A DNA stretch of 21,794 nucleotides from a virus (IMGVR_UViG_2737471841_000006:1-21794); one strand, 5' to 3'. Positions 1,553-7,234 are shown, counted from the stretch's first letter. Translations and numbers: made by a program. The notes: generated by a model not told the origin, from the sequence alone.

Positions 1553-1741
1553 TCACGAGGACTGAAGTTTCTCGCAATTAAAATTTATCAGTTTTACTTT
1601 CTGCTCTCTGGAAACGCCTGCTTCTTTTTTACCTGAGAGCATTTTTTCGCATTCTGATTTCGTTAGTTTAGATTTTGAATATCTTGTCCAGTTAGTAGGA
1701 GTGCCACCTTCCTTTTCAATTGTAGCGGTAATTTTATACAT
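1553..1741 (-). CDS. ydaC: Rac prophage YdaC-like small protein
   Basis: Minus-strand ORF downstream of ralR. Start placed at ATG 1741..1739 (MYKITATIEKEGG..) because a GGAGG Shine-Dalgarno lies 7 nt upstream inside the last ralR codons. Alternative starts at 1753 or 1813. Confidence 0.5.
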   Translation of the reverse strand: MYKITATIEKEGGTPTNWTRYSKSKLTKSECEKMLSGKKEAGVSREQKVKLINFNCEKLQSS

Positions 1742-1984: not shown

Positions 1985-2818
1985 TTATTCTTCTGGATTA
2001 TCGATTACACTGTATTCCCCGGCTATAACCGATATGTCGTCTGGATTAATTGTTTCCACCTCTTTTCCATCCATCGATACTGCACGCTGGATTTCAATAG
2101 ATACCGGCAGATACTTGAACAGTTTTCGTATCACTGTCTTTTTGGCCATGTCTTCAAAGTGTTCATCCCAGATGGACGACGCCCCTTTTGACGCTGCGTT
2201 TTTTGCCGCCTTGCTGTGTGTGTCGCGAACTTTTTCTACTTGTTTGCTGGTCATGACTTCAAACTGCACTCCTCCGTCTTTCAGTTTTGCAACAGCATAG
2301 ACATGGGTTATAGGGGCATCTTCGTTTTCACCGGGACGATGAACCAGTTTTTCATCAAGGCCAAGTTCATAGCTGAATTCATCACATTCACGGACAACAC
2401 GAGCTGACAGACTGATGATTTGACCTGATCGACGGGCAAGGTCGATCATGCCGCGATAACCGATGATCAGCTGTACGTTCTTCTTACCGTTTTTTGCTTT
2501 TCCGTTGCCGAACGGTAGCAGATATGCATGACCGAGGGCGCTACCTGGCTCAAGTCCGAGCTGTGAACACTGTACGATGGCACCGATAAAACTCGTCGAG
2601 TCACAGTTTCTTAGTTCCGGTACTTTACGGATTTCTGTTGTAGCAATGCGGATCATGCGTTCCGCTGTCATGTGACGTGGCAGAGCTGCTGCCAGTTGCG
2701 CTTTCATTGCCGGGCTGTTAATCACGCACAGCACATCCTTATCGTTAACTGCTGCTGGTGCACGGTTTCCCTGAGTTTTTTGCAGATCGGCTTTTGCGAT
2801 AGGTGGTTGCTTAGTCAT
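1985..2818 (-). CDS. recT: Recombinase RecT (single-strand annealing protein)
   Basis: ORF beginning [24 protein letters not shown].. and ending ..[11 protein letters not shown], recognisable as RecT. ATG 2818..2816 overlaps the recE stop (2813..2811) by 8 nt, the classic recE/recT coupling. Track ORF extends to 2875. Confidence 0.93.
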
Positions 2819-5462
2819 TTGCATACTCCTTAGCCCAGCGGGGCAGTGATAACGTCTTAATAGCTGGCCATTCATCGGTATTTAGGCAGTCAGCCAGGGT
2901 CCGCAGATTGCGGTGATATTCCTGCTGGCCTGCCAGTTTTGCTTCTTCGCCCATCATGAAAATCTCAACCGGATAACGTCCGCATTCAACAGTTGTGCTG
3001 GCAACCAGAAAAACGAAAGTTGGCTGCACACCAAACTGTGCTTCATAACCGTCACTGTAGAATGCATCCTGAACGTGATAGCGGTAGTCGTAATAAGCCA
3101 TTTTGAATCGTTGAATATCCGCTGTGGTTTTCACGTCCATGATCCAGTGAAATTCAGGAATAATTTTGTCCGGACGGCACCGACACAAAATTCCTGTTTC
3201 CGGATCTTCCCAGTAAATTGATGATTCAGCGTGTCCGGCGCTTTCAACAAGCCATTGCCCCAGCGGCAAAGCCATAACGCTTTGATACATGAGTTCAATT
3301 TTCCGGCCTTCTTCCGCAGTGATAACCGTTTTTCCTGTGCTTGCGCATTCCATCAGAAACGCTTTCTCTTCTTCTTTTCCGGCGTTTGTACGGCGGTTAA
3401 ATTCAGGTGCTACGATAAAGCGGTTACTGAATTCTTCCGGTTCAAGTACCCGGCAGTGGAAAGCGGTTCCTAAATCGAGCGTTTTTGTCTTTGTAGTGTC
3501 CACGGGGGCATTTTTACGCCACAAATACAGTGCCGGAGTATCAGCAATGTCATCGAGCTGAGACTTACTGACACCGGGACCCGCGTGGTAATTCTCATTC
3601 GAAATTCCGTAATAAATACCTGGCTCTATGTCTTCTACGATTACGGGATCTGCGACTTCGCCAGTTTCATCACTGCAATCGCGATGCGGATCGCTGCCAG
3701 CATTCTCATTGTGCGGATGTTCAGCGCCTTCCATTTCCTCCGGATCTTTTTCCTTAGCTTCAACCTGATTCTCTTCACCGAATGTTTCCTGGTATGTTGC
3801 GTCGCCCATCACCGCACCACAGTCAGGGCAGTTATCCCCGCCAGTCTGACCGCAGGCATTGCAGACTATTTCCGGTTCCTGTTGCACTACTGGCTCAGGT
3901 TGTTTCGCATCCGGGCTGATTTTTTCCGTTTCTGGCTGGTTCTGGTACACAGAATCGCGAGTCTGGATCCCCTTAACCCATTTCGGATCGTTCGGGTCGC
4001 TAATTCCGTCAACAAATTCACCACGTGATGCAGCAAGCAATTTATCGGCATCGACAGGATTTTTTGATGGAATGTTTTTCCGGGCTTCATGGAGTTCTGC
4101 CCGCAGTTCCTGATATTTCGCATCAACAGAATTTACCTGTGACTGAGCATCCAGCGGCTGCGTGTTCTGATGATGTTCAGTTGCATTCGGTTCCACTGTT
4201 TCAGCCGTTGCCTGTTCATCTGCCATTGCGCCAGATGGTTGTGGCTTTTCTTCATCGTCCTGTTTTCCTTCTTCTGTTACTCGCTGCGGCATCGGGGCCG
4301 AGGAGCGACCGCAGGCAATATCCACGATTTCCGGATCAGGGTTGGCATGATCGATTTCAGTCAGTACTTTGTTCAGATATTCAGTGACGTGTGCGGGGAT
4401 GACCTCGATCCCAATTGGTGCTTCTTTCACGGACGCAACCACGATGGCGCGGGAATAATCCAGCCCGCCAGGCATGGTGATGAATTTGTCGCGGAAAACA
4501 GAAAAGGGTGGTTTATTTTCAGCGATAATTTCCTCAATGCGTTTAGCGTGTGCCGGATGAAGGTTATAGATGTCCACGTCCATTGAACGGGCCAGTACGC
4601 CAGTGGCTACATCGCGCGCCAGTGACGTCAGATCGTGGACGAAACCTTCGCCGCGATCGGTGAGGTTCCCGCCGCCAGCATTAGCACCGGAAGCCGTGCG
4701 AGTGATGCGTGAAACACGATTCCCTTTTCGCCATTCTTTTGTCAGAAGACCGCGATCAATGTGTTCGGTATCCAGCCAGGCTGAAATGAAATTCTTAAAT
4801 TCATAGGGCTGATGTTTTTTCGTGATAGAGAACACTGCCTTAATTGCATCAGTCAGGCGGAGCAGGGCGGCATTATCCAGAGTTGTCGGTTCTGCCATGC
4901 TGCGTATGGCCAACAGCAGATTCTGGACATAGCTGTTTTCCTGATCCATCTCAAGAGCAGTAATGTGTTTGCGTTGTTCACGGGTGGCATGGTGCAGGTA
5001 TTTTCGATCCCCGGCTGCATACGTAAAAATGTGCAGAAGACGCTGCGTAAACCGCAAAGTGGCTACAGAGACTTCGCAATCCGGGCAATCCCCGTGAGCG
5101 CCTGCCAGTGTGTTTTCTTCCTGCCCTCCCGTCAGTTCTTCGGTTTCCTGGGCATTCTCCTGATGGTGAGCGTCGTCTGGTGCTGCTCCCGGTTTTAGTT
5201 CCCATGTCATGGAGTCTTTGCTGAGTTGATAGCGTTCACTCCAGGTAAAATCGATCTCACCTTCAGGGGGCAGGTCATTAACGACAGGAAAATTAGTGGC
5301 AACAGCTTTAAAATAGCTGCTCAGTTTTTTACCTGATTTGACGATCAGGTAGTCCAGAGTGGCGCAGGTCGATTCAAAATCGTCGCTTGCCCACAGGACG
5401 ACGTCAGGTTCACCGGATGATTTTTTCGCTTTCCGTAACAGGAAGAGTGGTTTTGCGCTCAT
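2811..5462 (-). CDS. recE: Exodeoxyribonuclease VIII (RecE), 883 aa
   Basis: Large minus-strand ORF; N-terminus [26 protein letters not shown].. and C-terminus ..[31 protein letters not shown] match RecE as I recall it. Central region appears divergent (mosaic) relative to my memory of the K-12 protein. Confidence 0.93.
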
Positions 5463-5913: not shown

Positions 5914-6084
5914 TTAAAGTTCGTGTGCCATCTGGTGTTTTTCGGCGCAACTTTCACTACAATATTTTTTCATTTCCGTCGTTGGGATAACTCCACGCAT
6001 GAAATGAAGTGGTATTTTAATACTTTTGCTTTCTTGAATTTCTTTATTGCAAAGGTGGTAAGCACATTTGATTTTCTTAGCCAT
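5914..6084 (-). CDS. ydaE: Small Cys-rich (zinc-binding-like) protein YdaE-like, 56 aa; not in the supplied ORF track (<60 aa)
   Basis: Hand translation of the minus strand from ATG 6084..6082 gives [58 protein letters not shown], with TAA at 5916..5914. The ATG overlaps the kilR TGA (TGATG). Position between kilR and racC matches Rac gene order. Confidence 0.65.
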   Translation of the reverse strand: MAKKIKCAYHLCNKEIQESKSIKIPLHFMRGVIPTTEMKKYCSESCAEKHQMAHEL

Positions 6085-6305
6085 CACCATGATTCCGCTT
6101 TTACAGGTAAACCATCACGACCGAGGAAGACTTTAATCATGCAGTCAGAAATGCATGTTTTTGTAGTCAGGCTACGAATATAAAGTTTTCGCTTTTTAAT
6201 ATTGTTTGCCGAGGCGATATATGTCCGACCTTCATGAAGAACATAATCGCCAGGGGTTACACACTGACGTGGTATTTCATCAGTTCCGAAGTGATGAGCA
6301 ATCAT
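6084..6305 (-). CDS. kilR: Killing protein KilR (FtsZ-targeting cell division inhibitor), 73 aa
   Basis: [76 protein letters not shown] matches K-12 KilR as I recall it. GGAG lies 6 nt upstream of ATG 6305..6303. Two further in-frame ATGs at 6311 and 6317. Confidence 0.8.
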
Positions 6306-6744
6306 AATCATCTCCATTTTTTCAAATGAACTTTGTTGATGCGGTGCCTAGTGCCTCCAGGTGATGTTAACCAGTTAACAATTAACACCGGATACAAATA
6401 CCCCCCCAAACTAATATAGAGTTTTTTAACTGTTCCGCGTGCGCTTAGCCGCATTCACCGCATCACAAAATTCACTTTAAAAAGGGCGGACATCAGTCGA
6501 ACTTCAAGAAAAAACCGATGCCGCCAAAGACTACACACAGCAATGTCGTTATTCACAACCGGAGGCGCACTCCCACCATTTATATTTAACAGACAAGACC
6601 GACTCTTTATTGATACCGGAAATGCGCCTTCGTGTTGTGCCCGGTTTTATTTCACCACCTCCGGGCTTCGGTGGTCTCGGCTATACCCCTACAGCGAGAG
6701 CTTGTGTTAACATTTCAATACCCTTACAGTCGAGAGTTATTGAA

Positions 6745-7234
6745 ATGTTGGATGTATTTACTCCATTGTTGAAACTTTTTGCTAAAGAGCCACATCGAAA
6801 GACTTATGTACACGATTATCATTTTTGGCCTCACTCTCTGGCTGATACCGAAAGAGTTTGCTGTCGTATTTAATGCTTATACTGAAATAACCTGGCTCTT
6901 TCAGATTATAGTTTTTGCCTTTTCTTTCGTGGTTGCCATTTCCTTCTCAAGATTGCGAGCACATATTCAAAAACATTATTCATTGCTACCAGAGCAACGA
7001 GTATTGCTTCGTTTATCTGAGAAAGAAATCGCTGTATTTAAAGATTTCCTTAAAACAGGAAATCTTATTATCACTTCTCCTTGCCGTAACCCGGTTATGA
7101 AAAAATTAGAACGGAAGGGCATCATTCAACATCAGAGTGATGGCGCAAACTGTTCTTATTATCTCGTCACCGAAAAATACTCCCACTTTATGAAGTTATT
7201 CTGGAACAGTAGGAGCAGACGTTTTAATCGTTAG
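6745..7234 (+). pseudogene. sieB: Superinfection exclusion protein B (sieB), reading frame broken by an apparent 1-nt insertion near 6792-6796
   Basis: MLDVFTPLLKLFAKEP (frame of ATG 6745) switches frame and continues as ..IERLMYTIIIFGLTLWLIPKEF..SRSRRFNR in the 6779..7234 ORF. 16 + 1 + 145 residues gives 162 aa, the intact SieB length. First in-frame ATG after the shift is at 6806. Confidence 0.6.

Follow-up and report, generated by a model that had tools for sequence, protein, structure and literature searches.

KilS and an STnc100-like folded RNA in the kilR-sieB spacer of a Rac-type prophage of Escherichia coli

The spacer between the divergent genes kilR and sieB of a Rac-type prophage probably is the minus-strand regulatory leader of the leftward kilR unit, made up of the small RNA (sRNA) KilS and a folded RNA, with the sieB promoter at the far end. 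The window, that is, the whole stretch of DNA that was analyzed, consists of 21,794 nucleotides (IMGVR_UViG_2737471841_000006:1-21794), and all coordinates below are window coordinates unless K-12, a model or another contig is named. An earlier note on the window, made from the sequence alone, had guessed that the spacer could hold an sRNA, and it does: an ortholog of KilS is present, at the position and on the strand at which this RNA is annotated in K-12. The sRNA of the spacer is, then, already known, the copy in the window is an allele of KilS, and the sequence cues picked out in the note are incidental.

KilR and DicB are prophage proteins that arrest the division of E. coli under oxidative, quinolone and beta-lactam stress, and the silencing and release of their mRNAs are only partly understood. 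An sRNA, a terminator and a folded RNA located in front of both kilR and dicB provide a concrete, mutable target for studying this control. Two features appear to be undescribed, namely, an RprA-like seed carried by a DicF scaffold and, in front of kilR and dicB, an STnc100-like leader containing a pseudoknot absent from the Rfam model; both are refinements of known kinds. The most far-reaching form of the proposal, namely, that KilS is an RprA seed mimic built on a DicF scaffold and that a core-only STnc100 subfamily with a pseudoknot gates kilR and dicB after an upstream terminator, is put forward tentatively, as possible rather than likely.

Genomic context of the spacer

The window represents a Rac-type prophage of E. 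coli. The antitoxin sRNA RalA is present at full length (1557-1735, plus strand; Rfam RF02694, 218 bits), a match that confirms a RalR/RalA module of the Rac type, and racR is carried as well. The recE ORF encodes 883 aa compared with 866 aa in K-12 (the latter from the K-12 coordinates).

With the start of kilR placed by homology to K-12, the spacer spans positions 6306-6745 (Table 1). The earlier note had described 427 bp of it (6318-6744) as a region without a convincing ORF between divergently oriented genes, and both parts of this description are borne out: kilR is on the minus strand and sieB on the plus strand, and the three short ORFs of the spacer, of 55, 48 and 87 aa, have no match in Pfam. 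The 48-aa minus-strand ORF, the only one over the conserved part, is interrupted in K-12 Rac according to the alignment. On these grounds, all three were rejected as genes.

Poor conservation among related prophages, which the note had named as grounds for dismissing an sRNA, is not what we found. Identity to the flagged interval reaches 99.8% in E. coli E21845/O/A and is about 91% in K-12-type Rac; the interval is matched in part by 4442 of the 5426 complete E. coli genomes, and over at least 80% of its length by 1762 of these. This conservation is far beyond chance and is accompanied by compensatory base-pair changes. Among the matches listed, the RefSeq PGAP records carry no feature under the match, and kilS is named only in the curated K-12 MG1655 record.

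Table 1. Positions of genes, RNA elements and putative control signals in and around the kilR-sieB spacer of the window
Feature	Position	Strand	Basis or remark
recE	2811-5462	-	883-aa ORF
kilR	6084-6305	-	95% identity to K-12 KilR
kilR start codon, ATG	6305-6303	-	equivalent of the K-12 start
kilR Shine-Dalgarno sequence, GGAG	6315-6312	-	read from the sequence
STnc100-like structured kilR leader, 165 nt	6483..6319	-	Rfam, fold, covariation
Leader P1 and extension	arms 6483-6456 and 6346-6319	-	28-nt arms; inverted repeats I1, I4
Leader GGUGAAU junction	6459-6453	-	
Leader P2, UAAGC loop	6452-6437	-	
Leader segment A	6432-6426	-	
Leader variable region	after segment A	-	contains G7 run
Leader hairpin B/B'	6389-6382 and 6370-6363	-	loop A' (6378-6372) complementary to A
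Leader P5, AGGCA loop	6361-6347	-	
CGCAT(T)CAC copy 1	6450-6458		CGCATTCAC
CGCAT(T)CAC copy 2	6459-6466		CGCATCAC
CGCAT(T)CAC copy 3	6468-6475		weak
KilS ortholog, 98 nt	6576..6479	-	aligns with K-12 1418502..1418405
KilS terminator hairpin (GGCGGCAUCGGU...ACUGAUGUCCGCC)	6525..6485	-	homologous to the DicF terminator
RprA-like KilS seed (GUGAAUAACGACAUUGCUGUGUGUAGUCUUUG)	6556..6525	-	local alignment to K-12 RprA nt 48-79
Predicted KilS extended -10 promoter	6591..6583	-	TGtTAAATA here, TGtTAAATT in K-12
Divergent control region, Rac-specific	6577..6704		separates the promoters of KilS and sieB; holds the stem-loop at 6654-6675
Candidate sieB promoter, extended -10 TGtTAACAT	6705-6713	+	looser scan; weak prediction
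Perfect 12-bp inverted repeat I3, AACATTTCAATA / TATTGAAATGTT	6709-6720 and 6738-6749		17 bp apart
sieB	6746-7234	+	product matches Pfam PF14163

KilS in the window

In the K-12 MG1655 record, the ncRNA kilS (b4833, 1418405-1418502) lies between kilR and sieB on the kilR strand. It was predicted from RIL-seq data, verified by northern blotting and found to be Hfq-dependent and enriched in stationary phase (Bar et al. 2021, PMC8175672). The RNA encoded in the window, located about 175 nt upstream of the kilR start on the kilR strand, matches the location of K-12 KilS and is 94.3% identical to it over 122 nt, promoter included. Besides locus, strand and length, the two alleles have the 5' hairpin, the seed core and the terminator in common. 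In the window copy, the 5' hairpin is followed by a single-stranded seed and then by an intrinsic terminator with a U5 tail. KilS together with its promoter was found in 1575 of the 5426 complete E. coli genomes (about 29%).

For K-12 KilS, an own promoter has been proposed, and the supplement of the same study places the transcription start at 1418502 and an RNase E site at 1418471 (PMC8175672). The hexamer of the predicted extended -10 element lies at -12 to -7 relative to this start; in the window, it is one base off the K-12 hexamer, without the final T (TAAATA versus TAAATT), and the promoter has no good -35 element. The exact start of KilS in the window allele is presumed from that in K-12. 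The K-12 RNase E site corresponds to window position ~6545, directly 5' of the RprA-like seed, and cleavage there would leave an RNA of ~66 nt starting with the seed.

The terminator of KilS is intact in the window, as indicated by the fold and by a comparison of 9 variants. The terminator stem carries two wobble-compatible changes with respect to K-12; across the 9 variants, the terminator pairs are kept via compensatory changes, and the loop between them is exchanged as a whole. The seed block is the most conserved single-stranded part of the RNA, and the block ACAUUGCUGUGUGUAGU hardly varies among these variants. A permissive Rfam scan of the window yielded three minus-strand matches, to DicF, to STnc100 and, partially, to RprA.

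An RprA-like seed

The similarity of KilS to the core-genome sRNA RprA is confined to the seed, which closely resembles the 3' half of the seed region of RprA. The local alignment with nt 48-79 of RprA includes 30 identities out of 33 and an exact 20-mer (6544..6525); the score of 47 compares with a mean of 14.6 and a maximum of 29 among 5000 shuffles, corresponding to a Gumbel p of 6e-9, or 2.5e-5 after multiplication by the 4227 Rfam families. The seed ends with UAGUCUUUGG in the window and with UAGUCCUGG in K-12 KilS, so that the window allele is even more RprA-like than that of K-12. In both KilS and RprA (RF00034), the shared 33-nt single-stranded stretch lies directly 5' of the terminator, whereas the 5' hairpins and the terminator itself differ between the two RNAs. 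The match of the window to the RprA model (30.8 bits, E 0.27) does not reach the gathering score of 70, as only nt 48-79 of RprA are shared. In the MFE fold of KilS, the seed is partly paired, with an unpaired probability of about 0.3. The RNase E site adjoins the shared stretch in KilS, and processing reportedly activates RprA as well.

KilS lacks the UCCCCU and the uninterrupted AACGAAUU of RprA, which pair with the rpoS leader, and the duplex predicted with this leader is weak (-15 kcal/mol for KilS versus -30 kcal/mol for RprA). In view of the weak predicted pairing and the absence of UCCCCU, the possibility that KilS is an RprA-like activator of rpoS was rejected; activation in that manner appears unlikely. 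Most likely, we infer, KilS base-pairs with a subset of the RprA targets. The one RIL-seq partner of KilS in K-12 is yncL (PMC8175672), which is also among the RprA targets common to RIL-seq and TRIC-seq, and the same 10+6-bp pairing at positions -42 to -18 of yncL is predicted for both sRNAs. The energy of the KilS-yncL duplex is not significant, being reached by 84-89 of 1000 shuffled seeds, so that the argument for this pairing rests on the shared target and the shared seed.

The same identity opens the way to a different reading, namely, that KilS is a mere by-product of a cis-acting attenuator that silences kilR, without any function in trans, in which case the RprA-like stretch would be a recombination scar and the RIL-seq signal would come from RprA reads. 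The run of bases identical in KilS and RprA is 16-20 nt long and the RIL-seq reads are 25 nt, so that KilS-yncL chimeras could be RprA reads that were mis-mapped; furthermore, only 3 interactions, with 235 chimeric fragments, were recorded for sieB.kilR.IGR (PMC8175672), the yncL duplex energy is not significant, and toxic KilR is known to be held off by transcription termination. However, KilS is Hfq-dependent and accumulates in stationary phase, the RNase E site lies directly 5' of the seed, and the seed is kept across divergent phages even where the promoter, the 5' hairpin and the terminator loop are replaced. Taken together, these observations make the by-product reading doubtful, if possible, and we favor base-pairing of KilS in trans. 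The bases that distinguish KilS from RprA are the extra C in AACGACAUU and CCUGG/UUUGG versus UUUGCCC. The identity of the seeds flags a possible read-mapping artefact in data of the RIL-seq type and, at the same time, leads one to expect cross-talk that links a core envelope-stress sRNA to a cryptic prophage. If the prediction holds, Rac-type prophages could draw on some members of the RprA regulon, or compete for them, yncL being one and others perhaps among them.

A related case among prophage sRNAs is StxS of the Stx phages, which, like KilS, results from termination upstream of a silent toxic operon and pairs via a seed shared with core-genome sRNAs including RprA (PMC7547250). Transcription of StxS starts at the late promoter PR' and stops early, at tR', and this sRNA activates rpoS (PMC7547250), whereas KilS belongs to the early-left region and its predicted pairing with rpoS is weak.

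Possible seed exchange in the DicF/KilS slot

The Rfam model of DicF (RF00039) matches 6539..6484 with 44.9 bits (E 3e-8), below the gathering score of 48; K-12 KilS scores 39.1 bits, compared with 76.7 bits for true DicF. The alignment between DicF and KilS is limited to the 18-nt terminator arm UUUGGCGGyAUCrGUUUU. The ftsZ-targeting 5' seed of DicF, UUUCUGGUGACGUUUGG, is absent from KilS, where it is replaced by an unrelated seed. A three-way alignment that combines the window with Rac and Qin of K-12 shows that the terminators of KilS and DicF are homologous, as are the ~170 nt behind them, which in Qin make up the dicF-dicB spacer; the homology extends to the start codon, whereas the sequences 5' of the terminator differ. 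Thus, KilS is a positional homolog of DicF with another seed. In Qin, DicF occupies the same slot of the early-left operon, with the same folded spacer of ~170 nt behind it and then a gene for a small division inhibitor, dicB in the place of kilR.

Some of the IMG/VR contigs carry mosaics of these elements. In one (L023), the DicF seed is joined to a KilS-type terminator upstream of a leader-type element, and in another (L126), a third, unrelated seed (CUCCAUGUUGAUUGGUACC) is found on the same scaffold, which suggests seed swapping in the DicF/KilS slot. A further contig (L006) encodes KilS-like RNAs that are devoid of the Rac promoter and are located inside an N-dependent operon. If the mosaics are interpreted correctly, the slot would be a cassette in which lambdoid phages swap seeds. 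In the literature that was searched, no connection of KilS with DicF, RprA or STnc100 was found. Prophage sequences resembling dicF were reportedly described by Faubladier and Bouche in 1994.

A structured STnc100-like leader of kilR

Between the KilS terminator and kilR lie 174 nt that form a stable fold (MFE -59 kcal/mol, z -5.7; 0 of 200 shuffles). The Rfam model of STnc100 (RF02076) matches 6472..6332 with 39.6 bits (E 8e-7), and the match covers only positions 22-154 of the model, leaving the part that corresponds to the 3' tail and terminator (about 155-206) outside. The gathering score of 47 is not reached by the window or by the elements of Qin (34.4 bits), phage P7 (43.0 bits) and phage phiSTEC1589 (30.8 bits); all leader-type copies that were scored lie between 30.8 and 43 bits. 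The elements of the STnc100 core fold, that is, the closing helix, the GGUGAAU junction, P2, the B hairpin and P5 with the AGGCA loop, are all present in the leader. The common architecture, from 5' to 3', is P1, GGUGAAU, P2 (UNNGC loop), segment A, a variable region, B-B' with loop A', and P5 (AGGCA). STnc100/PasD (RF02076; Zhu, Shabalina and Storz, bioRxiv 2026) has the same core and the invariant motifs GGUGAAU, the UNNGC loop of P2 and UCACCNGGAGGCACNNGGCACC, and has in common with the leader a covarying closing helix and B hairpin.

When RNAalifold was applied to leader-type sequences, 11 in number and including those of Rac, Qin, P7 and Klebsiella, P1, P2, B-B' and P5 were recovered. For the leader type, 97.1% of the cells are paired, compared with 25-44% in slid controls; 9 pairs are changed on both sides (a count matched by 1 of 500 shuffles), and the covariation score is 0.200 versus 0.096 (0 of 500 shuffles). 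Supported by these compensatory changes, the kilR leader is a divergent, sub-threshold member of the Rfam family STnc100. It differs from canonical STnc100 in the closing helix, which is extended to about 28 bp and spans the region from the U-tract of KilS to 3 nt before the kilR Shine-Dalgarno sequence, and in its location: leader-type elements are positioned in the 5' UTR before kilR, dicB or terB, whereas canonical copies are stand-alone genes. The same leader element is found upstream of dicB in Qin and of terB/tciB in phage P7.

The complementarity between segment A and loop A' would form a pseudoknot that is absent from the Rfam STnc100 consensus structure line. Among the leader-type sequences, A-A' is invariant and, because the pairing never varies within this type, the support for it comes from the family level only. 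We examined 95 representatives with less than 88% identity from phage and Enterobacterales contigs, among the matches listed: the complementarity of cognate A and A' amounts, on average, to 6.19 nt versus 4.64 nt for permuted pairs (z 14.4, 0 of 2000), with z 1.1 for a negative control. In nearly all of these representatives (L007-L249), the penultimate hairpin has a loop that complements the strand adjoining P2 on its 3' side, and 77 distinct A-A' sequence pairs occur among the 95 listed.

Could the conserved 165 bp be an element of DNA, such as a boundary of lambdoid recombination or modules or a protein-binding site, rather than an RNA? Mosaic junctions, at which the same block is combined with different upstream seeds and different downstream genes (kilR, dicB, terB), and the almost invariant sequences of P2 and P5 would be compatible with this interpretation, which is nevertheless very improbable, given that P1, B-B' and P5 are kept paired by compensatory double changes, that A and its cognate A' match far better than permuted pairs do and that the orientation of the element is always that of the downstream gene.

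Less improbable, though still unlikely, is that the folded element is cut out of read-through transcripts and, as a stable sRNA whose seed is the variable region, acts in trans like canonical STnc100/PasD, instead of regulating kilR in cis. The function of STnc100 is called unclear in the literature; PasD and STnc100 are Hfq-associated, and targets have been described. Canonical members stand alone, and many of them directly follow a promoter and precede a terminator by 30-80 nt; for 88 of the 153 canonical copies among the matches listed, a terminator lies at most 200 nt away. The long closing helix of the leader type would permit excision, and the internal region is hypervariable between Rac, Qin and the window. 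Against this, the 3' single-stranded tail and the terminator are missing in the leader-type copies (0 of 25 among the matches listed have an own promoter just upstream or a terminator within 200 nt), and none of the sRNAs annotated in K-12 maps between kilS and kilR or between dicF and dicB. We therefore prefer to view the folded RNA as a cis-acting leader. A C4/IsrK-type antisense RNA and a put-like antiterminator were considered as identities of the leader and set aside; Rfam C4 has no match, either in the window at E up to 10 or, at the gathering score, in 12 STnc100-bearing loci.

None of the three features that the earlier note had singled out in the spacer is a functional unit. The C7 run exists, at 6401-6407 rather than at 6403-6409; at this site, the alignment has GGGTGGG/GGGTGGA on the RNA strand in K-12 Rac and Qin, and the run, a single, non-conserved substitution in a variable loop, was rejected as a slippage tract for lack of conservation. 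The triplet of CGCAT(T)CAC-like repeats could be located as two copies and a weak third, but a repeat finder (seed 7, length 9) detects no direct repeats in the spacer. On the minus strand, the copies read GUGAAU, GUGAUGCG and GUGAAUGCG and belong to the 5' sides of P1 and of the GGUGAAU junction plus P2 in the structured RNA, that is, to helix sequence, so that the triplet was rejected as a repeat unit. The stem-loop at 6654-6675 does have a 6-bp stem, but its stability is no better than that of shuffled sequences (z -0.37 on the plus strand and -1.85 on the minus strand), and it was discarded for this chance-level stability.

A proposed model of kilR control

According to the literature, NusG/Rho silence kilR, and the silencing is lifted once OxyS brings NusG down; nalidixic acid and azlocillin induce kilR and dicB together. 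Between 7500 and 6250 on the minus strand, we found no rut-like stretch that is C-rich and G-poor (C>G); a Rho utilization site in this region was accordingly rejected and, for the same reason, the reported Rho/NusG silencing of kilR was not placed on the sequence.

Under the proposed mechanism, transcription would start at ~6576 from the extended -10 element at about 6591-6583, and most of the transcripts would end at the intrinsic terminator (6525-6479), producing the 98-nt, Hfq-dependent KilS. Such termination would keep the toxic FtsZ inhibitor KilR off, with the KilS terminator serving as an attenuator, and the released KilS might act in trans through the RprA-like seed, yncL being the partner identified by RIL-seq in K-12. 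Transcripts that read through the terminator, or those that arrive from upstream under relaxed Rho/NusG termination, would carry the 165-nt folded RNA, in which the closing helix of ~28 bp would bring the 3' end of KilS beside the kilR ribosome-binding site. The folded element could then control the processing, stability or translation of the kilR mRNA, and cleavage of the long helix by RNase III is the leading idea. The same control may apply to dicB in Qin. The leader of gene N of phage lambda is sensitive to RNase III and contains a long-range helix directly upstream of the ribosome-binding site of an early-left gene; it is used here as a working analogy for the ~28-bp helix, although the N and kilR leaders show no sequence similarity.

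The sieB side of the spacer

In the earlier note, the emphasis was on sieB, the promoter of which the spacer was thought to hold by necessity. Nearly all recognizable signal, however, is on the kilR (minus) strand; a consensus scan finds no plus-strand promoter in 6318-6744, and a looser scan yields only the weak extended -10 candidate, so that the sieB promoter at this site is a tentative prediction. The perfect 12-bp inverted repeat overlaps the candidate promoter and ends on the sieB ATG (6746); as RNA, it has a fold z of -2.75, and it could be an operator or a translational hairpin. Between the promoters of KilS and sieB, the control region is specific to Rac: positions 6577-6744 are 97% identical to K-12 Rac, and the region 6577..6704 is absent from Qin and from phage phiSTEC1589, in which KilS-like RNAs lie inside an N-dependent operon.

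It is improbable that the spacer is an ordinary divergent promoter region, consisting mainly of the sieB promoter and operators. A promoter is required for sieB, and the weak extended -10 element and the inverted repeat at 6705-6749 could belong to it, but they cover only the last ~45 bp, the consensus scan is negative throughout, and the other ~270 bp are explained by minus-strand RNAs.

Compared with K-12, sieB of the window has a 1-nt insertion near 6794 (CCACATCG versus CCAC-TCG), because of which the frame that starts with the ATG at 6746 ends at 6873. A frame with the SieB domain (PF14163) intact begins only at an internal ATG, at 6806 (142 aa). The window sieB is either a pseudogene, a gene for an Esc-like short product or the result of a sequencing error.

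STnc100 elements in other phages and bacteria

Scanning with the motif TCACCNGGAGGCACNNGGCACC retrieved at least 120 stretches each from IMG/VR and from GTDB genomes. The genome matches listed span many genera of Enterobacterales, and most of the listed matches are canonical STnc100, often in tandem arrays adjoining tRNA genes. In IMG/VR, such arrays, with 3-5 STnc100 units per ~1.2 kb near tRNA genes, are present in L014 (2265-3380), L021 (342-1038) and L070 (4349-5513). In L022 (5290-5630), a class of STnc100 starts right after a near-consensus promoter (TTGAAA-17-TAAATT) and is followed by strong terminators and then by holin and lysozyme genes, which is the position of the PR'-tR' late leader RNA. 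In phage P7 (L004), a tRNA-Sec-like match (2304-2388; 46.6 bits versus the gathering score of 47) has the annotated tRNA-Thr on one side and, on the other, the leader-type STnc100 element that belongs to the ban operon.
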